From Alphaproteobacteria bacterium (lineage in GTDB: Bacteria; Pseudomonadota; Alphaproteobacteria; RF32; CAG-239): a stretch of 64,000 nt of DNA. Made by a program: the position numbers and the translations under genes. Under the pieces are notes generated by a model, which made no database searches, was not told the origin of the DNA, and worked only from the letters and a program-made list of their open reading frames with translations. The first letter of the stretch is position 1. Every line of letters starts with the position of its first letter. The stretch is taken from the NCBI GenBank assembly GCA_045597005.1, contig JAZODJ010000022.1, positions 51,379-115,378 of the forward strand. Direction: 5' to 3'. Of the stretch, positions 15,718 through 64,000 are shown in pieces.

Positions 15718-15745
15718 AACTCCCTGATTTTTATCAGGGAGCTAA
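15718..15745. terminator. Rho-independent terminator downstream of the parvulin gene
   Basis: ctccctgat / tttt / atcagggag is a 9-bp stem with a T-run on the minus strand. Confidence 0.65.
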
Positions 15746-15760
15746 AAAATCAACGCAAAA

Positions 15761-16573
15761 TTAATTTTTAATTTCATTACCTTCCGCATCATATTTTACA
15801 ACTGATGCATTCTTCTGCAAATCTTTAATTATATCGCCCATAGTTTTCTGAGCTAACATTGCTTTTAATTGGTTTTCAATTTTATCCAATGGTTGCGGTT
15901 TAGCATCTCTTATATCTTCAACCAAAATCACATGATAACCGAATTGAGTTTTAACAGGAGTCTTGGTGTATTGACCTTTTTTCAAACTAAATGCTGCATT
16001 AGCAAACTCAGGAACCATCATTTCTTTAGTAAAATATCCCAAATCAGCAGGTTCTTTTGAATATTCTTTAGCCAATTTATCAAAACCGCCTTCTTTTTGA
16101 TATTTAGCAATAACTTCTTTAGCTGTAGCCTCATTTTTCACCAAAATATGCTTAGCTTTAACTTCTTTCTCACCTTTAAAAGTATTTTTATAATCTTCAT
16201 AAAGCTTTTTAACGGCAGCATCATCGACTTTAGCTTTTACTTTCTTTTCCAAATATATTTTTCGAGCTAATTCTTCCTTCAAACCTTTAAGCTGTTGCTT
16301 ATATTCCGGAGTTTCTTCAATATTTTCCTTTGCCGCTGCCTGATAAACTATTTCACCATCAACAAAAATATCCAAAGTCTTTGAATAAAATTCATCAAAT
16401 GATGTCTTTTGTTTAACATTCGGATTTGCTTCATACGCAACCTTAATATCAGCAACATTGATATTTTTTCCATTAACAACTGCTGCAACACCGCCTTTTC
16501 CTGCAGCAAGAACATCGCCACTTTGCAAAACAGCTAATCCCATAACGGCCAAAGCTAAATATTTTTTATTCAT
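15761..16573 (-). CDS. Periplasmic peptidyl-prolyl isomerase, parvulin (PpiC/SurA-like) type
   Basis: Signal peptide MNKKYLALAVMGLAVLQSGDVLA. Parvulin domain VKAKHILVKNEATAKEV...GGFDKLAKEYSKEP...LGYFTKEMMVPEFANAAF...PVKTQFGYHVILVED. Start at ATG 16571-16573 behind aggag. Confidence 0.75.
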   Translation of the reverse strand: MNKKYLALAVMGLAVLQSGDVLAAGKGGVAAVVNGKNINVADIKVAYEANPNVKQKTSFDEFYSKTLDIFVDGEIVYQAAAKENIEETPEYKQQLKGLKEELARKIYLEKKVKAKVDDAAVKKLYEDYKNTFKGEKEVKAKHILVKNEATAKEVIAKYQKEGGFDKLAKEYSKEPADLGYFTKEMMVPEFANAAFSLKKGQYTKTPVKTQFGYHVILVEDIRDAKPQPLDKIENQLKAMLAQKTMGDIIKDLQKNASVVKYDAEGNEIKN

Positions 16574-20330: not shown

Positions 20331-23300
20331 ATGTCTGAAGTAAAGATGAAAATGATGGATGGTAACGAAGCTGCTGCTTCTGTTGCTCACCGCATGAATG
20401 AAGTCTGCGTTATCTACCCGATTACTCCATCTTCTCCGATGGGTGAATGGGCTGATGCGTGGTCTGCTGCTAAACAAAAAAACCTTTGGGGCGTTGTTCC
20501 TGAAGTTCAGGAAATGCAATCTGAAGCTGGTGCTGCCGGTGCTTGCCATGGTTCAATCCAAGCAGGTGCTTTAACCACCACCTTTACGGCTTCTCAAGGT
20601 TTGCTCTTGATGATTCCAAACATGTATAAAATTGCCGGTGAATTAAGCCCGTTTGTTATGCATGTTGCTGCACGTTCTTTGGCTTATCATGCTTTGTCAA
20701 TTTTTGGCGACCACTCTGATGTTATGTCTTGCCGCCAAACAGGTTTTGCAATGCTTTGTTCAAACTCTGTTCAAGAAGCCCATGACCTTGCCGCAATTGC
20801 TCAAACAGCAACCTTGCGTTCACGTGTTCCGTTTATGCATTTCTTTGATGGTTTCCGTACTTCTCACGAAATCAAAAAGATTAATTTGTTGTCTGATGAT
20901 GATTTGCGTGCAATGTTAGAAGGTGTTGACTACCAATTCAATGCCAAAAATGCTCTTCGTCCGGAAGCTCCTGTTTTGCGTGGTACAGCTCAAAACCCTG
21001 ATGTATTCTTCCAAGGTCGTGAAGCTTGCAACAAATTCTACAACGCCGTTGAAGATATTGTTCAAGAAGAAATGGACAAGTTTGCTAAAATTTCAGGTCG
21101 CAAATACAATGTTGTTGACTATGTTGGTCCTGAAGATGCCGAACAAGTTATTGTTATTATGGGGTCCGGTGCCGAAACAGTTGAAGAAGCAATCGCTTAC
21201 TTAAACAACAATGGCTATAAGGTTGGTCTTTTGAAAGTTCATCTGTACCGTCCGTTCCCTGAAAAATCATTCATGAATGCTTTGCCGAAATCTGTCAAAG
21301 TTGTTAACGTATTGGATAGAACAAAAGAATCAGGTTCTATCGGTGAACCTTTGTACTTGGATGTTGTTGCAACATTGACTCATGCATTCGCTGACGGCAA
21401 AATCTCTGCAATGCCTCGCATTTATGGCGGTCGCTACGGTTTGTCTTCAAAAGAATTCACTCCGGGTATGGTTCGTGCAGTTTATGACAATGGCGCATCA
21501 ATGAAACCAATTAACAGTTTCTCAGTCGGTATTAATGATGATGTAAACAACACATCTTTACCATACAATGACGATATCGATACCGAAGGCAAAGATGTTG
21601 TTCGTGCTGTATTCTTTGGTTTGGGTGCTGATGGTACCGTTGGTGCAAACAAAAACTCAATCAAAATTATTGCTGAAGATGCCGGAAAATATGGTCAAGG
21701 TTACTTTGTTTACGATTCTCGTAAATCAGGCTCTATGACTACATCTCACTTGCGTTTTTCTGACAATCCGATTAAAGCTGCTTATTTGATTAACAAAGCA
21801 GACTTTGTTGCTTGTCACCAATTCCCGTTCATGGCAAAAGTTGATATTTTGAAAATCGCCAAACCAGGCGCAACATTCTTGTTAAATGCTCCATATTCTG
21901 CAGATGAAGTATGGAATCATCTTCCTCGCGAAGTTCAACAAGAAATCATCGAGAAAAAACTCGAGTTCTACACAATTAACGCTGTAGAAGTTGCCCGTGA
22001 AACCGGTATGGGACAACGCATTAACACCATCATGCAGGCTTGTTTCTTTGCAATTTCTAACATCTTGCCGAAAGATGAAGCTATTGCTCAGATCAAAAAC
22101 GCTATTAAGAAAACATATTCTAAAAAAGGTGATGCAATCGTTCAAAAGAACTTTGCTGCCGTTGATGCTTCTTTGGCTCATATGCACAAAGTTGAATACC
22201 CCAATGAAGTTACTTCAACCTTCAGTCGTTTGCTTCCTGTTCCGGCAGATGCTCCTGAGTTTATCCGCAAAGTTACAGGTGAAATCATTGCTGATCGCGG
22301 TAATGAACTTCCTGTTTCTGCTTTCAACGAAGTTGTAGACGGAACATGGCCGACAGGTACAACTCAATATGAAAAACGTTGTATCGCTACCGAAATTCCG
22401 GTCTGGGATGCTGAAAGTTGTATCCAATGCGGCAAATGTTCTCTCGTTTGTCCTCACGGCGTTATTCGTATGAAGGTTGCAACAGATGCCGAATTGGCTT
22501 CTGCTCCTGCAACTTTGAAATCAGCTCCGTATAAGGGTAAAGAGTTTGCTGATAAGAAATTTATCTTGCAAATTACTCCTGAAGATTGTACCGGTTGCGG
22601 AATCTGCGTATCTGCTTGTCCTGCAAAGAACAAAGCAAATCCTGAATTGCATGCAATCAATATGGATCACATCGAAAATCATTTGGATGCTGAAAAAGAA
22701 AATTGGAAGTTCTTTGAAACTTTACCATACGTAAAACGTACCGAAGTTGCTAAAAACTTGCCGAAAACCACTCAAATGATTCAACCTTTGTTTGAATTCT
22801 CTGGTGCTTGTGCCGGCTGCGGTGAAACTCCTTATGTTAAGTTGTTGACACAATTGTTTGGTGACAGAATGGTGGTTGCCAATGCAACAGGTTGTTCTTC
22901 AATTTACTCTGGTAACTTGCCGACAACTCCATATGCTAAAGATGAAAAAGGTCATGGTCCGGCTTGGGCAAACTCTTTGTTTGAAGACAACGCTGAGTTT
23001 GGTCTTGGTATGCGTTTCTCAATCGATCAACAAACATCTTTTGCTAAGCAATTGTTAGAAGGCTTAAAAGATAAAGTCGGCGCTGATTTAGCAGACAAAT
23101 TGTTGAATAACCCGCAATCAAATGATATCGAAATTGACAATCAACGTGATTTCGTTGCCGAATTGCGCACCAAGTTAGCAACAATTAACACAGCCGAAGC
23201 TAAACATCTTGATAAATTAGCCGACTACCTCATCAAAAAATCTGTATGGATTTTAGGTGGTGACGGTTGGGCTTATGATATCGGTTTCGGCGGTCTTGAC

Positions 23301-23891
23301 CATGCTATTGCATCCGGCAAAAATATCAACATCTTGGTTATGGATACAGGTGTTTACTCTAATACCGGTGGCCAACAATCAAAAGCAACTCCTATGGGTG
23401 CTTCTGCTAAGTTTGCTACAGCCGGTAAAGCAATCCCGAAAAAAGACTTGGGTATGATAGCTATGTCTTACGGCAATGTTTACGTAGCTCAAGTTTCAAT
23501 CGGTGCCAATGACACACAAGTAATCAAAGCTTTGAACGAAGCTGAAGCTTACGATGGTCCGTCATTGATTATTGCTTACTCACATTGTATCGCTCAAGGT
23601 TTCAACTTGGCAGATGGTTTGAATCACCAAAAAGCTGCCGTTGAATCAGGTTCTTGGCCTTTGTATCGTTACAATCCTGAAAACGTTAGCGCCGGCAAAG
23701 CTCCTTTGAGTCTCGACTCAAAAGCTCCGACCAAACCATTGGCTGAATATATGGCCAATGAAACACGTTTCCAGATTGTAAACAAACAAAATCCGGAACG
23801 TTATGAAACTTTGGTAAACAAAGCTCAAGAAAACGTAAACGAAAAACGTTCACTTCTTGAACATATGGCTGAGTTCAAAGTAGCTGAATAA
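20331..23891 (+). CDS. nifJ: Pyruvate:ferredoxin (flavodoxin) oxidoreductase, single-chain NifJ/PFOR type
   Basis: 1186 aa. N-terminus MDGNEAAASVAHRMNEVCVIYPITPSSPMGE. Two 4Fe-4S ferredoxin motifs (CIQCGKCSLVCP, CTGCGICVSACP). The TPP-binding region reads GGDGWAYDIGFGGLDH. Confidence 0.95.
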   Translation: MSEVKMKMMDGNEAAASVAHRMNEVCVIYPITPSSPMGEWADAWSAAKQKNLWGVVPEVQEMQSEAGAAGACHGSIQAGALTTTFTASQGLLLMIPNMYKIAGELSPFVMHVAARSLAYHALSIFGDHSDVMSCRQTGFAMLCSNSVQEAHDLAAIAQTATLRSRVPFMHFFDGFRTSHEIKKINLLSDDDLRAMLEGVDYQFNAKNALRPEAPVLRGTAQNPDVFFQGREACNKFYNAVEDIVQEEMDKFAKISGRKYNVVDYVGPEDAEQVIVIMGSGAETVEEAIAYLNNNGYKVGLLKVHLYRPFPEKSFMNALPKSVKVVNVLDRTKESGSIGEPLYLDVVATLTHAFADGKISAMPRIYGGRYGLSSKEFTPGMVRAVYDNGASMKPINSFSVGINDDVNNTSLPYNDDIDTEGKDVVRAVFFGLGADGTVGANKNSIKIIAEDAGKYGQGYFVYDSRKSGSMTTSHLRFSDNPIKAAYLINKADFVACHQFPFMAKVDILKIAKPGATFLLNAPYSADEVWNHLPREVQQEIIEKKLEFYTINAVEVARETGMGQRINTIMQACFFAISNILPKDEAIAQIKNAIKKTYSKKGDAIVQKNFAAVDASLAHMHKVEYPNEVTSTFSRLLPVPADAPEFIRKVTGEIIADRGNELPVSAFNEVVDGTWPTGTTQYEKRCIATEIPVWDAESCIQCGKCSLVCPHGVIRMKVATDAELASAPATLKSAPYKGKEFADKKFILQITPEDCTGCGICVSACPAKNKANPELHAINMDHIENHLDAEKENWKFFETLPYVKRTEVAKNLPKTTQMIQPLFEFSGACAGCGETPYVKLLTQLFGDRMVVANATGCSSIYSGNLPTTPYAKDEKGHGPAWANSLFEDNAEFGLGMRFSIDQQTSFAKQLLEGLKDKVGADLADKLLNNPQSNDIEIDNQRDFVAELRTKLATINTAEAKHLDKLADYLIKKSVWILGGDGWAYDIGFGGLDHAIASGKNINILVMDTGVYSNTGGQQSKATPMGASAKFATAGKAIPKKDLGMIAMSYGNVYVAQVSIGANDTQVIKALNEAEAYDGPSLIIAYSHCIAQGFNLADGLNHQKAAVESGSWPLYRYNPENVSAGKAPLSLDSKAPTKPLAEYMANETRFQIVNKQNPERYETLVNKAQENVNEKRSLLEHMAEFKVAE

Positions 23892-51350: not shown

Positions 51351-52257
51351 CTCTTTTTATTTCCCATTCCAAATCAATGGATGTTTTCTTTTTCACATTA
51401 TCTACAATTTTATTACCTAAATCTTCTATATCCTTAGCCTTTGCATTTCCCTTATTTATCAAAAAATTGCAATGAACGTCCGAAACCTCAGCATCATTTA
51501 CCTTAAAATTATTACTTCCTGTTTTTTTAATCAATTCCCAAGCTTTTAATCCTTCAGGGTTCTTAAATGTTGATCCGGCAGTTTTAACATTATGTGGTTG
51601 ATTTTTCATTCTATACGCTTTGTGTTCATCAATTATCTGTAAAGTTTTTTGTGCATCCTGTTTTTCTACATTTAATATCAACGATGTTACTATCCATTCC
51701 TCAGGAAAAAAACTACATCTGTATCCCAAATTAAAATCGCTTGCCGCAACCTCTATCTCTTCACCCTCTGCATTTATAACTGTTGCTCCAAGCAAAACAT
51801 CTTTTAATTCTTTTCCAAAACATCCGGCATTTGTTTTAATTGCTCCCCCCAATGTCCCCGGTATTGACACCAAAAACTCCAAACCGCCAATTCCACTATC
51901 TGTCATAATTTTTTTCAATTCGGAATTTTTCATTCCGGCACCACAAAACAACTTATTTTCGCTAAGTTTATATTTTTTATAAAATTTTGAAGACAATTTT
52001 ATAACAACTCCGGGAATACCCCCATCTCTTACTAAAATATTAGAACCGCCACCAATAACGAAAATAGGCAAATTATACGGCTTGTGTTTCATAAAATGAC
52101 AAAGATCATCATTATCTTCAGGGTAAAACATAACTTCTGCAGGACCTCCTACCCCAAACCAAGTATATTTATGAAGAGGTTCGTCGCAAACATATTTTCC
52201 TTTTACTTTAGGTAAAATATTCAATAAATTATTTTTTTTCTTATTAAACCACAACAC
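51334..52257 (-). CDS. murB: UDP-N-acetylenolpyruvoylglucosamine reductase MurB
   Basis: TWFGVGGPAEVMF and VIGGGSNILVRDGGIPGVVI (FAD-binding), plus GSTFKNP. Overlaps the ftsQ start by 17 nt. Confidence 0.85.
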   Translation of the reverse strand: MLWFNKKKNNLLNILPKVKGKYVCDEPLHKYTWFGVGGPAEVMFYPEDNDDLCHFMKHKPYNLPIFVIGGGSNILVRDGGIPGVVIKLSSKFYKKYKLSENKLFCGAGMKNSELKKIMTDSGIGGLEFLVSIPGTLGGAIKTNAGCFGKELKDVLLGATVINAEGEEIEVAASDFNLGYRCSFFPEEWIVTSLILNVEKQDAQKTLQIIDEHKAYRMKNQPHNVKTAGSTFKNPEGLKAWELIKKTGSNNFKVNDAEVSDVHCNFLINKGNAKAKDIEDLGNKIVDNVKKKTSIDLEWEIKRVGIVK

Positions 52258-55770: not shown

Positions 55771-56994
55771 ATGCAAACCGGAGCCAGATATCAAGCTGTT
55801 TTAGAAATATTGACCGAAGTTTTCAAAAACGAAACACCAGCAGACAAAATAATCAATGATTATTTGCGCAATCGAAAATATATAGGTTCCAAAGACAGAC
55901 GTTTTATTGTTGAACTTACTTGGAATATTATACGTAATCGACTAAAATTATCTTTCGATTCTCAATACGATGATCCCAGACATATTTTACTTTATGCTCT
56001 TTGCGATAAGTTAGAAGATGTTTTTGACGATTCAACATATGGAATATCTCCTCTGACACCTGAAGAAAAATTATGGCTTAAAAAAGTAAAAGATATAAAT
56101 GAAACTGTTTACCCTGATTATATTGAAGCAGAATGTCCATTATGGATTTTTGAAAAAATACAAAATATCGATTTATGCAAATCATTAAATCAACCGGCAA
56201 CAACAGACATTCGTTCACACAACATCGGCCGTGAAGAACTTCAAAATAAGCTGGCTACGGAAGGGATTGAAGCGACTAAAGGGGGCTATTCTCCATACTG
56301 CCTTAAAATTAACGAACGTCTGGTATTAAACAACTGTATGGCTTGGCATGATGGTTTTTTTGATATTCAAGACGAATCAAGCCAAATTGCTTCTGTTTTA
56401 ATAGATGCCAAACCGGAACATAAAATTATTGATTATTGTTGCGGTGCCGGAGGCAAATCACTTGCTGTAAGTAACATCTTAAAAAACAAAGGAAATATAT
56501 TGGCTTATGACATAGATGCAAAGAGGCTTGAAAATATAAAACCGAGAATAAAACGCCTAAATGTCAAAAATATCGAATTAACCGATATAATTGCCGATTC
56601 CGACAAAGATTTTGATCGTTTCATTCTTGACGCACCTTGTTCAGGCTCCGGAACATGGCGCCGTTCGCCGGATGCTAAATTTCGCCTCACCAAAGAAAAG
56701 TTATTCGGACTTACCAAAATTCAATCAAACCTATTGAACATCGCCGCATCCAAAACCAAACTTAACGGCCACATAATATACATAACTTGCTCTATCCTAA
56801 AAGATGAAAACGAGAATATTATAGAAAGTTTCTTAAATACAAATCCCGAATTTTCCCCCATAAATATACAACAACTCTGGAAACAAAAAATATCGGCTCC
56901 CTATCCTTGCTCTTCGGATATTTATCTTCGTATGTCTCCTCTTACAACAGGCACAGACGGATTCTTTGTCTGCATCTTAAAAAAGACATCCTAA
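55771..56994 (+). CDS. rsmB: 16S rRNA m5C methyltransferase, RsmB/Sun family
   Basis: N-terminal NusB-like region. SAM-binding IDYCCGAGGKS, and the catalytic pair DAPCSGSGTWRRSPD and YITCS. aaggag SD before ATG 55771. Confidence 0.8.
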   Translation: MQTGARYQAVLEILTEVFKNETPADKIINDYLRNRKYIGSKDRRFIVELTWNIIRNRLKLSFDSQYDDPRHILLYALCDKLEDVFDDSTYGISPLTPEEKLWLKKVKDINETVYPDYIEAECPLWIFEKIQNIDLCKSLNQPATTDIRSHNIGREELQNKLATEGIEATKGGYSPYCLKINERLVLNNCMAWHDGFFDIQDESSQIASVLIDAKPEHKIIDYCCGAGGKSLAVSNILKNKGNILAYDIDAKRLENIKPRIKRLNVKNIELTDIIADSDKDFDRFILDAPCSGSGTWRRSPDAKFRLTKEKLFGLTKIQSNLLNIAASKTKLNGHIIYITCSILKDENENIIESFLNTNPEFSPINIQQLWKQKISAPYPCSSDIYLRMSPLTTGTDGFFVCILKKTS

Positions 56995-57314
56995 TTTGCA
57001 CTATTTTTCTTGTATATATAAGAAATTATTTCAGCAACAGCCGCAAATGCTTCTATGGGGATTTCCTGATTGATATCAACAGCCTTCAAAATTTGCAGCA
57101 AGTCCGCATCCTGTTTTATTTCGATTCCTTCTTTTTGAGCAATTGCAATTATTTTTTTTGCAATATCCCCTTGCCCTTTTGCTAAAACTATCGGAGCGTT
57201 ATCCTTATTTTGATCATACCCTAATGCCACAGCATAATCACTGTCCTTGCTTGTGGAAAAATCGGAAGCACCGTTGTCTTCATCTTCAAATATGCTATTA
57301 TCTCTCTCAGACAT
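56991..57314 (-). CDS. FlhB C-terminal-domain-like protein (EscU/YscU/HrcU-family fragment, FhlB type)
   Basis: 107 aa. AVALGYDQNKDNAPIVLAKGQGDIAKKIIAIAQKEGIEIKQDADLLQIL...IPIEAFAAVAEIISYIY mirrors the post-NPTH half of FlhB, which in this window ends AVAEVINYVM. Confidence 0.7.
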   Translation of the reverse strand: MSERDNSIFEDEDNGASDFSTSKDSDYAVALGYDQNKDNAPIVLAKGQGDIAKKIIAIAQKEGIEIKQDADLLQILKAVDINQEIPIEAFAAVAEIISYIYKKNSAN

Positions 57315-57382
57315 GATAACTCCGTTTGTATTTTATCTGTATTGATAATATGTTCAACAAACAAAGTTTTCAAGTTGTTTTT

Positions 57383-57398
57383 TGGCATACAACTTGCA
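57383..57398 (+). promoter_or_regulatory. Sigma-54 (RpoN) -24/-12 promoter for flgB-flgC-fliE
   Basis: TGGCAT-acaac-TTGCA matches the TGGCAC-N5-TTGCW consensus with exact spacing. It lies 50 nt upstream of the flgB ATG (57448). Confidence 0.55.
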
Positions 57399-57447
57399 TG
57401 TTGTTTAGATGAGGGGACATCTAAACTTTAACTTAGGGGAATATTGT

Positions 57448-57870
57448 ATGGATTTGCAGAATCTTACAGTTTTTAGCATGGCTAATCAAAATATGAAATA
57501 TTTATCGGCAAAAGAACGTATAATTGCCGCAAATATTGCTAATGCATCAACCCCAAACTATCTTCCGCAAGATATAACCAAACCGACATTTTTCAGCAAT
57601 TTAAAGGTCGAAAAACCTTTACTGGATATAAAAACAACCCATAACAAACATATCGGTAGTCTGGTATCTCAAACAAAACCGAAAAATAACGGTCCGTTTA
57701 TCTATACCCCTCAACCCACAAATGCACTTACCATTGATGGAAACGGAGTGGTATTGGAAGACCAAATGAACGAAGCCAGCAAGGCCAGTTCCGAATACAA
57801 AAGAATGATTACAATTTATAACTCGTACAAAAATATGCTCTCGGTAGCTAACACCAAAATTAGCGGATAA
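57448..57870 (+). CDS. flgB: Flagellar proximal rod protein FlgB
   Basis: LSAKERIIAANIANASTPNY (rod N-terminal motif) and the flgB-flgC-fliE order. Start at ATG 57448 behind agggga; the track starts at 57409. Confidence 0.85.
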   Translation: MDLQNLTVFSMANQNMKYLSAKERIIAANIANASTPNYLPQDITKPTFFSNLKVEKPLLDIKTTHNKHIGSLVSQTKPKNNGPFIYTPQPTNALTIDGNGVVLEDQMNEASKASSEYKRMITIYNSYKNMLSVANTKISG

Positions 57871-57876
57871 TGAAAA

Positions 57877-58290
57877 ATGGCTGGTAATTTATCATTAAGT
57901 GCAGATATCGCATCTTCCGGAATGAAGGCTCAAGCAGAACGCTTGAAAGTCATATCGCAAAATATGGCAAATGTCGATTCTGTATCTGCCGAACCGGGAG
58001 GAGAACCATATCGTCGCCAAGTGGTAAGTTTTCAAAACTATATTGATCCCGAAACCGGAGCGCAAAAGGTTCGTGTCGACAAAATAGTAAAAGATATGTC
58101 ACCTTTTGAAAAAAAGTATGATCCCAATCATCCGGCTGCAGATGCCAATGGTTATGTATCATTACCCAATGTCAACACATTGGTTGAAATGATGGATATG
58201 AAAGAAGCACAACGAGTTTATGATGCTAATTTAAATATGCTGAAAACAGCAAGAGAAATGAATTCCAGCGTATTAGATATATTAAAATAA
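57877..58290 (+). CDS. flgC: Flagellar proximal rod protein FlgC
   Basis: SGMKAQAERLKVISQNMANVDS, HPAADANGYVSLPNVN and VEMMDMKEAQRVYDANL are canonical FlgC blocks. Confidence 0.9.
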   Translation: MAGNLSLSADIASSGMKAQAERLKVISQNMANVDSVSAEPGGEPYRRQVVSFQNYIDPETGAQKVRVDKIVKDMSPFEKKYDPNHPAADANGYVSLPNVNTLVEMMDMKEAQRVYDANLNMLKTAREMNSSVLDILK

Positions 58291-58305
58291 AAAGGGGAAT
58301 AAAAA

Positions 58306-58626
58306 GTGGTTAACAGCGTAACTAATGCACTAAACGCATATCAAACGGCTCTAAACAGGATCAACAACACACCTGCAACACCCAAAGCTCAATCACTCAA
58401 TGAGCCTAAAGAAACTTTTGGACAGGTTTTAAGCAACATTGTTGAAAACGCTGTAGATTCCCAAAAGCAAGCAGAGATAACAACCATCAACGGCATTGCC
58501 GGCAAAGCGGATATTCAAGATGTTGTTTTAGCTATATCCAACGCAGAACAAGCATTAGAAACTGTTGTTGCTGTTCGTGATACAGCAATCAAAGCTTATA
58601 ATTCAATTATGCAAATGAACATTTAA
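58306..58626 (+). CDS. fliE: Flagellar hook-basal body complex protein FliE
   Basis: 106 aa with a GTG start behind aagggga. FGQVLSNIVENAV and the C-terminal LETVVAVRDTAIKAYNSIMQMNI match the FliE pattern. Confidence 0.8.
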   Translation: MVNSVTNALNAYQTALNRINNTPATPKAQSLNEPKETFGQVLSNIVENAVDSQKQAEITTINGIAGKADIQDVVLAISNAEQALETVVAVRDTAIKAYNSIMQMNI

Positions 58627-58685: not shown

Positions 58686-59050
58686 CATCCAAAGGAGCCT
58701 TTTTTCTTTTGTCATTCAGAGGAGCCACCCCTCCCTCTGTCATTCAGAGGAGCCGACAGGCGACGAAGAATCCATAAAATCAGAGACTCTTCGCGTTACT
58801 CAGAGTGACATAAAATGGATTGCTTCAGCGCAAGCGCTTCGCAATGACTTTTCATTCTCTGTCACTGCGAGGAGTGACAACGACGAAGCAGTCCATAAAA
58901 AGGAGTGGATTCCTTCGTCGCTATCGCGCCTCGGAATGACATAGGGGAAAAAATCTTCCTCGCTGCAACATAAAAAAATAAAAGCTGTCTCGAAACAATA
59001 TAAAATTACCATCATGCCTCCGAACGAAGTGAGGTCAGGGCATCTTCAAT
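58686..59050. repeat. Cluster of REP/MITE-like imperfect palindromic units
   Basis: At least seven ~30-35 nt units of the type gtcaYtc.gaggagY....cgacgaag.a.tcc occur in both orientations. Examples are gtcattcagaggagccgacaggcgacgaagaatcc, its inverted partners ...cttcgcgttactcagagtgac and ggattgcttcagcgcaagcgcttcgcaatgac, and gtcactgcgaggagtgacaacgacgaagcagtcc / ggattccttcgtcgctatcgcgcctcggaatgac. Track ORFs 58666..58944(+) and 58800..59015(-) are translations of these repeats. Confidence 0.8.
58859..58986 (+). repeat. Flanking direct repeat, copy A (3' side of the flagellin gene)
   Basis: 128 nt (tctgtcactgcgaggagtgacaacgacgaagcagtcc...cctcgctgcaacataaaaaaataaaagc). By eye it aligns with 61328-61453 with 4-5 substitutions and one 2-nt indel. 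Confidence 0.85.
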
Positions 59051-59062
59051 ATTTCGCTATTC

Positions 59063-61175
59063 TTAAAACAAACTCAAGATACTTTGTGCGGATTGTGATG
59101 CCAGCGAGAGTGAGTTTGTTGCCAACTGTTGGCGCGTCTGCAACGCCAAATAATTTGCCGATTCTTCATTCATATCTGCCAACACCAGATTATCAGCACC
59201 GGTTTCCAAGACATCAATAAGCGCATCGGTAAAATTTTGCCTTGTTTGAATCAGTTGATATTGATTGCCGAATGCCTCGGAATATTCGCGCAATTTGTTT
59301 ATTGCCAACACCAACTCGTCCAAAGCTTGTTCAACATCAGCAACACTTTTCCAATCGACAGTTTTTAGCCCTATTGCATCATACTTGGCATCAACTCCTG
59401 ACACCTCGATATTATGAACTCGCGATTCATTTAATGTTACGCTCAATTTACCATTATTCAACAAATTGATTCCCTGATACGACGTATCTTTTATCATATC
59501 ATCATAATTGCTCAATATCTTCAAATATTGCTCGCCGAAATTATCCGCCAAACTATCGTCGCTGATAATTTCGGAGCCGGCTCCGCCGGCATAAGATACC
59601 GCACTTGCCACTACAATACTTCCCATAGACTTCATTGCTGTTAATAATGCTGAGGCATTATAATTCGTTATTGCCGTAATATCTTCTGTATATTTCGCAC
59701 TTGTTGCCCAATATGTATTGGTGGTCGAACCGCCGTACGGATTGTCGGCATTAAAATTGCCCGTTGAACTTGTACTGCTGAATGTTAAATCCTTGAGGTT
59801 AACTATCTTTACTGAACCGTCGTTATTTACTGCACATACTATACCGACTGCCGTTTTGCTTCCGTCATAATCATCAGCCGATCCCCAAGTTTTATCACTG
59901 TACATAACATCGCCAATTTGTGGGGCAGCTCCGCTGCCACCGCCACCTACGGTGCCGGAAAGGGTTGAAGGGTTAAAGCAATTTTCTAAAAGCTGGAAAC
60001 AACGGACGAGGGTTAGTGTTGTTCTTATTGCCGTTGTAACGGTAACCATTACTTGTACTCAATTTCCAAGAAAAGTTATTAGATTACTCAGAAGAGGACC
60101 AATAATAACCGCTCATTTCCGATGCAACGCTTGAATCTTTAGCTGCCAAGGTGCCTAACGCATCGTTGATGACCTTCATATTACTTGTATCATAACTTGC
60201 AGCACCACTTGTTCCACTTCCTGAGGTCATTGCACTGGTATCTGTGCCATACATATCCATCAACTCACCTATTGATGGCAAATACCACGTCCCTTGATCA
60301 AACTCTCCACTCGTGCTGCCTACATAAAATTGATTAGCTGCTGTTGCTGCCAGACTATGTTCTTCTAGCTGATTTACTATTGCTTTGGTGTTTGCTTCTC
60401 CTGCATATAGATTAACTGCATCATCATTTCCATTCTGGAACATTTGAGATCCTGTTCCACTTACCTTTATATTGGATGGATTATCTATTATTACACTTCC
60501 TCCATTTAATACTTGTATTCCTTTTACATTGGTGCCACTGGCTTCTATTATCAAATTCGATATTTCTGCAATTGAATCTGCCCCATCTACTACTATCGCA
60601 GAACCTCCACTTGCGGAATTATAAACTAGCTTATGTCCATTACCTTCTATTACAACGTCACTTGTTCCTATATTTAAACTCTCGCTTAGCGTTACATCTC
60701 CGGATAATACTAGCTTCGTCGCTCCGCCTGCTATAAGCGCCTCTATTTCCGAAGCTCCTGATCCTGCCGGTACTGCTGTATATCCTTCCGCTATAAAGTC
60801 TTCTATCGGGCGTGATACTACCCCACTACTTCCTTCTCCTCCTGAAACTCCGCTCTGCGATGAAGCTCCACTCTGTGACAATGCTTGCTCCACAACTGAC
60901 TTAGCTTGCTCTAAAAACGTCAAGCCGATCTCTATTCCCTCGGACGCCGCACTTAAGGTTTGTATCCCCTGTCCCATACTGTCTAATAATGAGGCCAAAT
61001 CACTCGCCCTGTTCGTTAACGCTCGTGCCTGATAATAACTACTCGCATTGTCCAATGCCGAATTTACATCCTTACCAGTAGACAAACGCTCCTGTGTCTT
61101 ATCCATTTGTGTCGAAATCGTTTTTAACGACTGCAAATTACTGCGCATACTCGAGGTTAAGGTGATCCGGTTCAT
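59063..61175 (-). pseudogene. Flagellin carrying an internal DGR variable region, currently interrupted by an in-frame TAA and a +1 frameshift
   Basis: ORF 60084..61175 starts with a flagellin N-terminal D0/D1 domain (MNRITLTSSMRSNLQSLKTISTQMDKTQERLSTGKDVNSALDNASSYYQA...). ORF 59063..60049 ends with a flagellin C-terminal domain (LDELVLAINKLREYSEAFGNQYQLIQTRQNFTDALIDVLETGADNLVLADMNEESANYLALQTRQQLATNSLSLASQSAQSILSLF). The junction is the VR. Total span is 2113 nt; removing the single extra VR nucleotide gives 2112 nt, or 704 codons in one frame. The central part has beta-helix-like repeats and a DUF1566/CLec-like module (WYLPSIGEL ... GYYWSSSE ... VRC). Confidence 0.85.
59991..60102 (-). other. 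DGR variable repeat (VR)
   Basis: The reverse complement (112 nt) is ttggtcctcttctgagtaatctaataacTTttcttggaaattgaGtacaagtaatggtTaccgtTacaacGGcaataagaacaacaCtaaccCTcgtccgttgtttccagct. Capitals mark the only differences from the TR. Confidence 0.9.
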
Positions 61176-61282: not shown

Positions 61283-61453
61283 CCCTCCCGTCATCCTGAA
61301 CGCAGTGAAGGATCCCCCTTTTTTTCTTCTGTCACTTCGAGGAGTGACAACGACGAAGCAGTCTAAAAAGGAGTGGATTCCTTCGTCGCTATCGCGCCTC
61401 GGAATGACAGAGGGGGAAAAATCTGCCTCGCTGCAACATAAAAAAATAAAAGC
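61283..61453. repeat. REP/MITE-like units plus flanking direct repeat copy B (61328-61453), 5' side of the flagellin gene
   Basis: gtcatcctgaacgcagtgaaggatcc is followed by a 126-nt copy of the 58859-58986 repeat. Track ORFs 61193..61495(-) and 61230..61526(+) are translations of these repeats. Confidence 0.85.
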
Positions 61454-61709
61454 GAACTCGCAACAACAAAAAATTGCATTACTTAAAATAAACACCTATA
61501 AATTTGCGGATAAATTAAAAAAATAAATTTGTTTCTACAAAAATTATTCCATAATACAAAAGGCAATTTGAGCGGAGATTAAAAAGAAGTATTCGCCGGA
61601 ATTTTAATAATTATGGTTATTAAAAGTGAGCATCTTTTTATAAAAAAAGGGTCATTCACAGCAATCAAATGCTGTTAAGAACAATAGCAATGACAAAAAA
61701 CTGTTTGGC

Positions 61710-61820
61710 TTGGTCCTCTTCTGAGTAATCTAATAACAATTCTTGGAAATTGAATACAAGTAATGGTAACCGTAACAACAACAATAAGAACAACAATAAC
61801 CACGTCCGTTGTTTCCAGCT
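61710..61820 (+). other. DGR template repeat (TR)
   Basis: 111 nt: ttggtcctcttctgagtaatctaataacaattcttggaaattgaatacaagtaatggtaaccgtaacaacaacaataagaacaacaataaccacgtccgttgtttccagct. In the target's frame it is rich in AAC/AAT codons (S N N N S W K L N T S N G N R N N N N K N N N N H V R C). It lies 47 nt upstream of the RT start. Confidence 0.9.
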
Positions 61821-61867
61821 CTTTTTATAAATAGACATCAGATACTAACAAACGTTGTAAGAAACAA

Positions 61868-63166
61868 ATGACCTTATTTGACCCCGAAAATACTGCATTA
61901 ACTTGTCAAATACCTCTTGAAGAGGTTTTTAATGCTTATTACGAATGTCGACGCAACAAACGTCGCACAGTCAACGCTTTGGCATTTGAGCTTAATTTTG
62001 AACACGAACTGATTCGTTTGTGGCAAGAAATTAATACCAACAAATACAAAATCGGCCGTTCAATTGCCTTTGTTATAAAACATCCGGTACAACGTGAAGT
62101 ATTTGCAGCCAATTTTCGCGACCGAATAGTACACCATTTGGTTATATCTAAAATCAATCACCTATTTGAAGAAGAATTTATCCCAACAAGCTATAGTTGC
62201 CGCGAAGGGAAAGGTGTTTTATATGGGGGCAAAAATATCAAAGCACAAATGAAAGATTGTTCCGAAAACTACACCAAAGATTGCTACATCTTAAAACTGG
62301 ACATACGTTCATTCTTTATGAGTATCAACAAAAATATTCTTTATCAACGCTTACATGCATTTGTATCCGAAAAATATCATCAACCGGATAAACCCATCCT
62401 ATTACGACTTATAAAACAAATAATATTTTATGCTCCTGAAGATAATTGCACCATCAAAGGAAAATGGGCTGATTGGAAAGGACTTCCCTGTTATAAAAGT
62501 TTGTTTTGGTCTGAAGGACATTGCGGACTTCCTATCGGTAACCTAACGTCTCAAATATTTGCTAACTTTTATCTCAATAGCCTTGATAAATACATAACAG
62601 AAACATTAGGAATAAAACACTACGGACGATATGTCGATGATTTTATACTGATGCACCAAAACAAACAAACCTTAATAGAAGCCCACCAAAAAATCAAAAA
62701 TTTTATCTCTTCAGACCTCAAACTCTATCTTCATCCGCAAAAAGTATATTTGCAACATTATAGCAAAGGTGTAAAATTTATTGGTAGCGTTATCAAACCT
62801 CATTGCATTTATATTGGCAAACGTTCAAAAAACAACCTATACAACAAAATTTATTCCTTATTACCCCAAATGGCTAACAACGTACAAAATACTCTGGATT
62901 TATTACAACATTTCACCTCTAGCATCAATTCATATATGGGATTTATGCGACACTACAATACCTATAATCTACGATGCAAAATAACAAATCTTTTAGAAAC
63001 AACTTTTTTGGGCAACATTTTACTGCAAACCCCTAATGCCTTAAAAATTGCAATTCATAAAAATTTTACCGCAAAAGAATTAAAAAAACGCCAATTGCGA
63101 CGACAAAAACAATACCGAAAAAAATTAAAAAAACATCTACAGGAGAATATTTATGGTCTTGTATAA
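61868..63166 (+). CDS. DGR-type reverse transcriptase
   Basis: 432 aa. REVFAANFRDRIVHHLV, then LPIGNLTSQIFANFYLN (the [ILV]GxxxSQ motif that distinguishes DGR RTs from group II and retron RTs), and the catalytic GRYVDDFIL. There is no endonuclease or maturase extension. TR lies immediately upstream. Confidence 0.9.
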   Translation: MTLFDPENTALTCQIPLEEVFNAYYECRRNKRRTVNALAFELNFEHELIRLWQEINTNKYKIGRSIAFVIKHPVQREVFAANFRDRIVHHLVISKINHLFEEEFIPTSYSCREGKGVLYGGKNIKAQMKDCSENYTKDCYILKLDIRSFFMSINKNILYQRLHAFVSEKYHQPDKPILLRLIKQIIFYAPEDNCTIKGKWADWKGLPCYKSLFWSEGHCGLPIGNLTSQIFANFYLNSLDKYITETLGIKHYGRYVDDFILMHQNKQTLIEAHQKIKNFISSDLKLYLHPQKVYLQHYSKGVKFIGSVIKPHCIYIGKRSKNNLYNKIYSLLPQMANNVQNTLDLLQHFTSSINSYMGFMRHYNTYNLRCKITNLLETTFLGNILLQTPNALKIAIHKNFTAKELKKRQLRRQKQYRKKLKKHLQENIYGLV

Positions 63167-63491
63167 CCAACTTCCTATTTATCGAGATGCATATCAACTT
63201 TTGTTGGAAATATACCAAATAACCAACAAATTTCCTCGTGACTTCAAATATACTCTCGGACAAGATATGAAAAAAAGCTCTCTTGAACTGTTCAAAGAAT
63301 TATACAATGCAAATGTTTCTATCGAAAATCGTAAAGAATGTATCAATAGATTTTTAGCATCATTCGAACTCTTAAAAATAGAAATGCGATTATGCACAGA
63401 TTTACAAATATTATCCGTCAACAAACTGGCTCAACTTAGCTTAATTATGGATTGTATCGGCAAACAAGCTTCCGGTTGGCGTAAAAAATAA
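63153..63491 (+). CDS. avd: Avd-like accessory variability determinant (four-helix-bundle protein)
   Basis: 112 aa. LPIYRDAYQLLLEIYQITNKFPRDFKYTLGQDM ... IGKQASGWRKK follows the Avd / 23S-rRNA-intervening-sequence-protein family pattern (FP+..KY.LG ... GKQ..GW.K). aggag SD. Overlaps the RT stop by 14 nt. Confidence 0.8.
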   Translation: MVLYNQLPIYRDAYQLLLEIYQITNKFPRDFKYTLGQDMKKSSLELFKELYNANVSIENRKECINRFLASFELLKIEMRLCTDLQILSVNKLAQLSLIMDCIGKQASGWRKK

Positions 63492-63531: not shown

Positions 63532-64000
63532 TTATTCCGCTTGCAAAAACTTAACCTTCATTATAGCTAAGGCATTTGCCGAAATTCTGCTTATCGCATC
63601 ATAAAACACAACAAAATCATCGGCTTCTTGCAACCATTCATTAAACTGAACATTTTTTAGCAAATCTTCATTTAGCGGTTTTTTAGCTATTGCAACTGCT
63701 TTTTTTATGTCACCTCTAGCAACAAAATCATTTATAACCGCCCAAGCTCTATCTTCTTCAGAAAACACCGGCTCATTTACAACTTCATTTGTTTTATTTA
63801 TTTTTACAACTTTACTAACCTGCTGATAGATTCTTTCTTTCCAATTCAAAGAACTATCATCATTTTCAACATCTGTTTCTGAATATTTGTCCGCAAAAAT
63901 ATCAGCAAACATTCTTTGTAGTTCAATATTCGATTTTATTCCCTTTAATGAAGCTTCATTAATGATTGAAATCTCTTTTTCGATTTTATAATTACCTGAT
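63532..64000 (-). CDS. Hypothetical protein (5' end probably outside window)
   Basis: The track lists 63532..63912, but the frame stays open upstream of that Met to the window edge (...SGNYKIEKEISIINEASLKGIKSNIELQR-MFADIF). No family recognised. Confidence 0.4.
   Translation of the reverse strand, partial: SGNYKIEKEISIINEASLKGIKSNIELQRMFADIFADKYSETDVENDDSSLNWKERIYQQVSKVVKINKTNEVVNEPVFSEEDRAWAVINDFVARGDIKKAVAIAKKPLNEDLLKNVQFNEWLQEADDFVVFYDAISRISANALAIMKVKFLQAE

Follow-up and report, generated by a model that had tools for sequence, protein, structure and literature searches.

Diversity-generating retroelements (DGRs) whose targets carry a DUF1566/Lcl_C domain, among them those of the Legionella LdtA-type lipoproteins, together with the prototype Mtd/brt/avd system of Bordetella phage BPP-1, are the closest described relatives of the element studied here. 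To our knowledge, the DGR targets described to date are phage receptor-binding proteins, lipoproteins, pilus-associated proteins and other surface proteins. The stretch of DNA analysed (hereafter the window: 64,000 nt, positions 51,379–115,378 of the forward strand of contig JAZODJ010000022.1, assembly GCA_045597005.1, Alphaproteobacteria bacterium of the lineage RF32; CAG-239; 36% GC) contains what is very probably a chromosomal DGR, with template repeat (TR), reverse transcriptase (RT) and accessory protein Avd, that targets a large flagellin of its host, an uncultured gut alphaproteobacterium with low GC. The mechanism is a known one and the target class is essentially undescribed. The interpretation put forward in a first-pass annotation of this DNA is supported.

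With the Lcl_C-targeting DGRs the locus shares adenine-only differences between TR and variable region (VR), an IGxxxSQ-type RT motif, an Avd four-helix protein, TR codons rich in AAY, and a VR that ends in the ..VRC.. scaffold motif of Lcl_C. Unlike in those systems, the Lcl_C module lies inside a flagellin, and the VR, rather than being C-terminal, is followed by ~310 residues and a whole polymerisation domain. The TR of the window species contains a stop codon, VRs are often 1–3 nt longer than their TRs, and a single DGR can apparently serve several flagellin paralogues. It is the mid-gene VR, the stop-bearing template, the null alleles restricted to the VR and the multiple flagellin targets that make this DGR unusual.

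On the side of the target, giant, flagellinolysin-type and large alphaproteobacterial (PRK12688/PRK14708) flagellins have the same D0/D1 termini and a long insert at the position of domains D2/D3. Giant and enzyme-bearing flagellins are known to polymerise, and in flagellinolysins the filament shows a functional domain in thousands of copies. Unlike theirs, the insert found here is an adhesin-like beta-helix with a lectin-like domain whose putative binding face would be rewritten by a retroelement. Flagellar antigenic and phase variation, as by hin inversion in Salmonella or by recombination of the central region, likewise involves a variable exposed middle, on/off states and mosaics among conspecifics, whereas the present locus relies on templated adenine mutagenesis of a single 115-nt segment, with off states that come from stops or indels in the VR. 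Finally, the C-terminal domain of Legionella pneumophila Lcl (PDB 8q4e) aligns over YWSS..SW....G....K....VR, the VR scaffold of the flagellins, although Lcl is a collagen-like surface adhesin that is neither a flagellin nor diversified by a DGR, and the structural match of our models to it is weak.

The two minus-strand open reading frames (ORFs) that flank the VR belong to a single gene of 703 codons, as its Flagellin_N and Flagellin_C halves, and this gene is broken only within the VR (Table 1). The 5' ORF encodes 363 amino acids and the 3' ORF 328; the latter is listed as 59063–60049, rather than extending to 60083, because of a frameshift. In Pfam searches (cut-offs of 26.6 bits for Flagellin_N, 23 for Flagellin_C, 34.9 for Lcl_C, 40 for PF22296 bAvd and 24.3 for PF20585), the 363-residue product matched Flagellin_N (PF00669) at 42.2 bits (1e-10) and the 328-residue product matched Flagellin_C (PF00700) at 27.3 bits (4.5e-6), both above cut-off, as the first-pass annotation had predicted. 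The top NCBIfam matches of both were the large-flagellin subfamilies PRK12688 and PRK14708 (1e-30 for the 3' part). An identity as FlgL was rejected, the FlgL model scoring far below these flagellin models (1e-4 in a relative).

The gene spans 2113 nt in the window, and deletion of one C from the CCC run brings it to 2112 nt, or 703 codons and a stop, which is the length at which the two frames had been proposed to join; a single in-frame stop, the TAA within the VR, is then left. The reconstructed protein carries Flagellin_N at residues 12–104, Lcl_C (PF07603, formerly DUF1566) at 280–392 with the VR inside it, and Flagellin_C at 624–703, and it contains the motifs WYLPSIGEL, GYYWSSSE and VRC and the QSILSLF tail that had been quoted beforehand. 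The Lcl_C match (E 2e-5, 25.2 bits) lies below the cut-off and stays there, at 33.0 bits, when the TR-templated sequence is substituted, the E-values ranging from 2e-5 to 8e-8. A search with the reconstructed 703-residue protein as query returned 486 relatives, and among the matches listed more than 100 are intact homologues of 650–790 amino acids with Flagellin_N, often Lcl_C, and Flagellin_C. A polypeptide running uninterrupted from flagellin N to flagellin C is thus encoded by these homologues, including the conspecific flagellins P0005 and P0004 described below, and not by the window, with its TAA and +1 insertion. In the family alignment the N and C termini are the best-conserved parts. 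As to a second flagellin elsewhere in the genome, which the annotation had raised, neither a second flagellin nor a second VR occurs in the 64-kb window, and flagellin paralogues are numerous in related metagenome-assembled genomes (MAGs). Exact-sequence look-ups with the N-terminal fragment and the RT of the window gave no match.

The annotation had also placed a DGR-type RT, an Avd and a TR beside the flagellin, and all three hold up. The RT carries the motif LPIGNLTSQ in addition to its RVT_1 match, and its cross-matches to group II and retron RTs in NCBIfam were weak; Avd exceeds the cut-off for PF22296 and also matches NF033474 DivGenRetAVD (2e-16, 60.1 bits, under the NCBIfam cut-off of 80 bits). 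TR, RT and Avd are transcribed divergently from the flagellin target. Alignment of TR and VR over 115 columns revealed nine substitutions, all on TR adenines in the TR body; apart from these, the two repeats differ by a C/T mismatch at the 3' boundary and by one extra nucleotide in the VR. With 36% A in the TR, the chance that nine of nine substitutions fall on adenines is ~1e-4. The VR makes up ~5.5% of the flagellin gene. Within it, TR codon 26 (AAG, Lys; window 61786–61788), despite its two adenines, is unchanged in nine of ten VRs and reads GAG only in the conspecific locus L162; it corresponds to a nearly invariant Lys of the family alignment. Taken together, this constancy and near-invariance suggest strong purifying selection on this Lys, presumably as a scaffold residue within the VR.

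Two conspecific assemblies, L002 (ENA; flagellin P0005, 734 amino acids) and L162 (NCBI GCA_045637985.1; flagellin P0004, 733 amino acids), were compared with the window, and in both the flagellin is uninterrupted. The flanks of the L002 gene are 96–97% identical to the window DNA on both sides, and the gene order is the same in L002 and L162 (flagellin, fliE-flgC-flgB, flhB-like, rsmB and on to mraY). L002 has a complete Avd-RT-TR cassette upstream of the flagellin, with an RT 97% identical to that of the window, whereas the contig of L162 ends with the TR and a truncated upstream ORF. Misassembly of unrelated contigs, which would have undone the annotation, is excluded, because two conspecifics show the same synteny and an intact flagellin of 733–734 amino acids. 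The TAA is present at the same TR codon in L002 and L162, and the corresponding VR codons read TGG (Trp) and TAC (Tyr), respectively, the expected products of adenine mutagenesis of T-A-A. P0004 and P0005 are 97% identical, with 15 of their 21 differences confined to VR residues 388–413, which is indirect but strong evidence that the VR is rewritten in nature. The three conspecific VRs all differ at TR-A positions, which is likewise indirect evidence of diversification.

A search for flagellins with a VR near a DGR RT, as the annotation had proposed, found the pairing in other species. A scan of one genome per GTDB species yielded at least 559 relatives, and 80 loci were kept for analysis; all belong to uncultured Alphaproteobacteria (a few labelled only 'Proteobacteria' or 'proteobacterium'), and most come from gut metagenomes (Hadza, Nepal, ruminant), with many paralogues per MAG. 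At L009, L016, L021, L025, L039, L040 and L049, the flagellin has RT and Avd genes no more than 2 kb away, the RTs being 62–71% identical. A TR/VR pair with 11–18 adenine mismatches was found in six of these seven, the L016 contig being cut before the TR. Substitutions at other bases were absent from L009, L021, L025 and L039 and numbered 3–4 in L040 and L049 (1–4 across L002, L040 and L049). The combination of RT, Avd, TR and flagellin VR was present in seven further loci, six from GTDB species representatives and one on a human-gut contig, and in five of them the pattern was adenine-only. A metagenome scan with an RT profile recovered the flagellin-linked human-gut locus L082 (RT 67% identical); an exact search with the TR flank in a metagenome collection gave no match. 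In MAG JAHALQ, the TR beside L040 also fits the VR of L019, an intact flagellin located remotely from it, with all but one of the body mismatches at adenines; a single DGR thus appears to have two or more flagellin targets there.

More distant RTs, which share no more than 56% identity and come from lakes, sludge and elsewhere, adjoin small Lcl_C proteins that are not flagellins. Judged by these sequences, the flagellin-targeting DGRs are a narrow subclade nested among Lcl_C-targeting DGRs, which suggests that a VR-bearing Lcl_C module was captured into the outer region of a flagellin. Two proteins of ~1100 residues, P0023 and P0024 (258-kb and 41-kb contigs), are non-flagellins that contain the Lcl_C module and the domain that follows it in the flagellins, with 55% and 46% identity to the query over 37–50% of its length. 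P0023 has an Lcl_C match above cut-off (50.8 bits, versus 18–27 bits for Lcl_C of the flagellin relatives) and a weak CHAP match, and it is probably on the same contig (258,042 bp) as the flagellin P0088. Both proteins may be extra DGR targets or donors of the module. The cassette also varies in its layout: in L009 (5802–7529), RT and Avd are on the plus strand, but downstream of avd the TR has its A-rich sense strand (7529 to 7418) on the minus strand, so that this TR appears antisense to the RT. The TRs of the window, of L021 and of L039 lie upstream of the RT and share its orientation.

The insert that replaces the outer domains D2/D3 is ~470 residues long and comprises a beta-helix, the Lcl_C/DUF1566 domain and a further small beta-rich domain. 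An AlphaFold 2 (AF2) model of P0005, built from 56 sequences, had a mean predicted local distance difference test score (pLDDT) of 75.5, with values of ~90 at residues 280–430 and 440–530 and low values at the D0 helices and linkers. It consists of long terminal helices, stacked strands at 132–269, an alpha/beta domain at 280–432 with the VR strands at its end, a Gly/Ala linker, the small beta-rich domain at 440–530 and a long disordered linker. The top six matches of this model in a Foldseek search of the PDB were the Caulobacter filament subunits FljK/L/M/N (E 2.6e-5 to 1.2e-4); beta-helix matches were weak. The pectate lyase-like adhesive domain PF20585 (Pectate_lyase_5) had no direct Pfam match in the window flagellin. 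It was found above cut-off in P0012 and P0018, and residues 121–270 of the window protein are 50% identical (E 3e-39) to the matching segment of P0018 (32.1 bits). A family profile of the Lcl_C region matched a sole solved structure, 8q4e (E 1.2e-4), exactly over the VR (YWSS..SW..G..K..VR), and many homologues carry precomputed PF07603 matches. The assignment of the Lcl_C fold rests mainly on such sequence profiles, because an AF2 model of the domain by itself was poor (pLDDT 56.8) and its top Foldseek match, again 8q4e, was weak (E 0.8 over 52 columns). The fold searches of the models returned neither Mtd nor TvpA, a fold search of BFVD gave nothing significant, and the insert as a single sequence had no match in the PDB. 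Since everything between the D1 segments of a flagellin projects outward from the filament, the VR is expected to be surface-exposed.

Table 1 Features of the flagellin locus and its retroelement (window coordinates)
Feature	Position	Strand	Description
Variable region (VR)	59988..60102	-	mid-gene, ~310 codons ahead of the gene end; 115 nt; aligned to TR
Template repeat (TR)	61710..61823	+	41 A in 114 nt; in frame WSSSE*SNNNSWKLNTSNGNRNNNNKNNNNHVRCFQL
DGR reverse transcriptase	61868..63166	+	432 amino acids, intact; RVT_1 6e-20
Avd accessory protein	63153..63491	+	112 amino acids; PF22296 bAvd 3.9e-18, 66.3 bits
5' flagellin fragment	60084..61175	-	D0/D1 N-terminal helices, pectate-lyase-like beta-helix insert, most of Lcl_C/DUF1566; stops at in-frame TAA
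3' flagellin remainder	59063..60083	-	rest of VR, Gly/Ala linker, second small beta-rich domain, D1/D0 C-terminal helices with QSILSLF end
TAA stop in VR	60084..60086	-	in frame; same codon in TR
CCC (CC in TR)	60009..60011	-	1-nt insertion; frame lost just ahead of conserved VRCFQ
GC-rich stretch	59915..59962	-	65% GC; Gly/Ala linker codons, ~30-75 nt past VR; palindrome GGCAGC-GGA-GCTGCC at 59924-59938
Direct repeat, downstream copy	58848..59007	+	~160 nt, hairpin-forming; brackets the flagellin gene
Direct repeat, upstream copy	61318..61475	+	between flagellin start and TR
Flagellar neighbours	56991..58626		flhB-C-terminal-like 56991-57314 (-), flgB 57409-57870, flgC 57877-58290, fliE 58306-58626; Pfam

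The stop in the flagellin is templated, because the TAA is identical in TR and VR; in the six remaining TRs the homologous position holds TAT, TAC or AAT, and TAA occurs only in the window species. Stop-codon reassignment is no explanation, because TAA terminates 23 of the 31 long ORFs of the window, and a programmed frameshift or readthrough is unsupported, the conspecific genes being simply in frame. The rest of the 2.1-kb gene, outside the VR, is free of lesions. A survey of 38 full-length loci from representative genomes showed four to be broken, by a nonsense codon in L027 and a frameshift in L040, L043 and L047, and all four breaks are inside the VR. Similarly, 'half' proteins on long contigs (26–87 kb) start or end within the VR, many of them in 90%-identity clusters of intact relatives. 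Thus P0156 and P0157 end in ..SSSEDSNSTSW, and their partners P0149 and P0152 pick up the unchanged frame after a few codons (contigs of 86.6 kb and 32.6 kb), the break being a nonsense codon where related TRs have, after Ser-Trp, the Lys codon AAA, while P0138 and P0132 have, like the window, a frameshift just ahead of VRCFQ. Wherever the lengths of VR and TR differ, the VR is the longer (by 1 nt in the window and L040, 2 nt in L049 and 3 nt in L002 and L009; in L162 they are equal), and the extra codon of L002 sits in an AAC-AAC-AAT run and looks like slippage. These observations support the idea that the window copy is a DGR-made null allele whose conspecific counterparts hold in-frame TGG or TAC, as part of an overall reading of the locus in which we have good confidence.

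If the DGR and its flagellin target are real and the TAA and the +1 are instead assembly products, a consensus or chimera of VR variants, the true gene would be intact. We regard this as rather unlikely. Metagenome assemblers are expected to fail at a VR, where contigs often end (that of L049 just past it), and with VR lengths that vary within the species, as noted above, joined paths could net +1. The TAA itself, however, needs no artefact, since it is the unmutated TR codon; indel-free nonsense at a TR AAA occurs on two long contigs from different samples (P0156/P0149 and P0157/P0152); and De Bruijn paths use real k-mers, so that single-base insertions normally exist in the reads. The alleles with nonsense alone argue that some of the off states, at least, are real, and the lesions of the window are probably present in real cells. 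That the flagellin is a decaying pseudogene, in a lineage where the DGR is disused and this paralogue is being lost since other flagellins suffice, would fit its two independent inactivating lesions, the stop codon in the TR itself, and the many paralogues and variable presence of copies in related MAGs. It is nevertheless very unlikely, for RT, Avd and TR are intact and 96–97% identical to their counterparts in a conspecific whose target is unbroken, the single affected region of the gene is the VR, and the breaks of its relatives are confined to this 5.5% of the gene, unlike random decay. Moreover, because all TR-body substitutions are at adenines, the VR would have been rewritten recently relative to ordinary point mutation.

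A different doubt concerns the role of the protein. Low model confidence at the D0 segments, the modest Flagellin_C score (27 bits) and the many flagellin paralogues per genome could all be accommodated by a flagellin-fold protein that is not a filament subunit, such as a free or tip adhesin or a junction- or cap-like minor component, in which case there would be no multivalent display. We consider this unlikely, given that the top family matches are flagellin subfamilies with FlgL far weaker, that the top structural matches are filament subunits, that conservation across the family is highest at the N and C termini, and that giant and enzyme-bearing flagellins are known to polymerise. Several points nonetheless temper the reading of the locus as a DGR that diversifies a filament-borne lectin-like site. 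As assembled, the window gene cannot yield a full-length flagellin, and its nine changed adenines, out of 41 in the TR, together with the indel, could reflect an assembly that runs as a consensus or chimera through a mixture of VRs. The Lcl_C scores of the flagellins are under the Pfam cut-off and, as described above, the domain model and its fold match are poor. Polymerisation of a flagellin with this insert and current RT activity in the source genome are both putative; this flagellin may be a minor one among the many paralogues of related genomes; and the initiation of mutagenic homing (IMH) and hairpin elements considered below are identified tentatively.

By analogy with the known DGR pathway, a flagellin that keeps the D0/D1 helices of the filament core, with an adhesin-like insert in place of D2/D3, would be diversified as RT and Avd reverse-transcribe TR RNA with random misincorporation opposite adenines. 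The mutagenised cDNA would then replace the 115-nt VR inside the Lcl_C domain, which would randomise ~15 AAY-templated codons of the putative binding face and leave the scaffold as it is; if the subunit polymerises, the variable, putatively ligand-binding site would be displayed along the filament. Retrohoming that leaves both adenines of the TAA unmutated would write a stop, and the window would represent that state with, in addition, one nucleotide inserted close to the 3' end of the VR. The VR-restricted nulls, with a template stop in three conspecific assemblies, raise the possibility that the DGR is also an on/off switch. On this reading it would do two jobs, reprogramming the lectin-like site and switching flagellin paralogues off and on at high frequency, by way of stop-capable TR codons (TAA here; AAA and AAG more widely) and slippage-type insertions, with several paralogues per DGR, and the null allele would be reversible and normal, not damage. 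The flagellum, with thousands of copies of the site along its filament, would then undergo antigenic and phase variation together, both driven by a retroelement. We put this forward as a tentative possibility, and think it less probable than not.

A flagellin target would equip a polymer made up of thousands of subunits, which forms a motor-driven organelle and is a major target of innate immunity and phages, with a hypervariable lectin-like site. It makes testable the tuning of flagellar adhesion, escape from flagellotropic phages and changes in antibody recognition through templated mutagenesis in gut bacteria, and it offers a natural scaffold for multivalent display libraries. As for novelty, the annotation knew of no described DGR that diversifies flagellin, a view to be slightly softened, the pairing being not wholly absent from the record: in Yan et al. 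2019 (PMC6642488), 'flagellin' is named once among DGR target annotations, with no detail, and the accessible part of its supplements has no flagellin entry. The string 'flagell' is absent from the main text of Roux et al. 2021, and the accessible part of the supplements to that paper names PF07603 338 times and neither PF00669 nor PF00700. A full-text literature search for DGRs with flagellin, flagellar filament or DUF1566 found no described DGR-targeted flagellin beyond the listing in Yan et al. 2019.

A VR can apparently operate deep inside a gene, and the recognition elements must therefore sit within coding sequence. TR and VR share a 3' block, CGTCCGTTGTTTCCAGCT, a tentative IMH, and then diverge. 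Past the VR, the GC-rich stretch that encodes the Gly/Ala linker holds one or two short GC hairpins; in the window it has a minimum free energy of -20.6 kcal/mol, versus -13.0 +/- 3.1 for synonymous recodings (fraction 0.012), and the linker stretch beats its synonymous recodings in four of eight loci (fraction ~0.01), of which the window and L002 are not independent. Most DGR-linked relatives have a hairpin at the same place with another stem sequence, for example GGCGGC-GCA-GCCGCC, and the hairpin is absent from four paralogues without a matching TR. The arrangement is similar to that of the Bordetella phage DGR, where a GC-rich hairpin is reportedly needed for retrohoming. The data are suggestive only, and the stretch is a candidate DGR target-recognition element.

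Compared with that of L002 (8001–10205), the flagellin gene of the window is a mosaic: its last ~450 nt are 97% identical, Lcl_C and the following domain ~81% and the 5' D0/D1 part ~77%, while in the beta-helix segment DNA similarity is undetectable. This pattern points to recombinational exchange of the central region among flagellin paralogues, on top of the DGR variation. The ~160-nt direct repeat that brackets the gene occurs in two copies only in the 64-kb window and forms the same bracket in L002 (7613–7764 and 10285–10436); it could be the remnant of a tandem flagellin array or a recombination handle for swaps of flagellin cassettes. Rfam gave sub-threshold matches of hairpin type (plant miRNA) only for these repeats. 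Copy number and location of flagellins differ between close relatives. In a related species (MAG JAZSQL; 81–89% nucleotide identity over the SecA/PpiC/RF3 region), a flagellin paralogue (L003, 8001–10088) stands at the site that corresponds to window ~15720–15770, where the window has none.

A prophage origin of the locus was rejected, its neighbours being cell-division and flagellar rod genes, SecA, pyruvate:ferredoxin oxidoreductase and RF3. An ORF convergent with avd (63532–63912, minus strand, 126 amino acids) has no Pfam match. The pyruvate:ferredoxin oxidoreductase gene lies at 20331–23891 (1186 amino acids), and an Rnf cluster was seen near a flagellin paralogue in L001, which is from another sample and possibly another species. 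Both, together with the 36% GC, fit an anaerobic gut lifestyle of this uncultured alphaproteobacterium.

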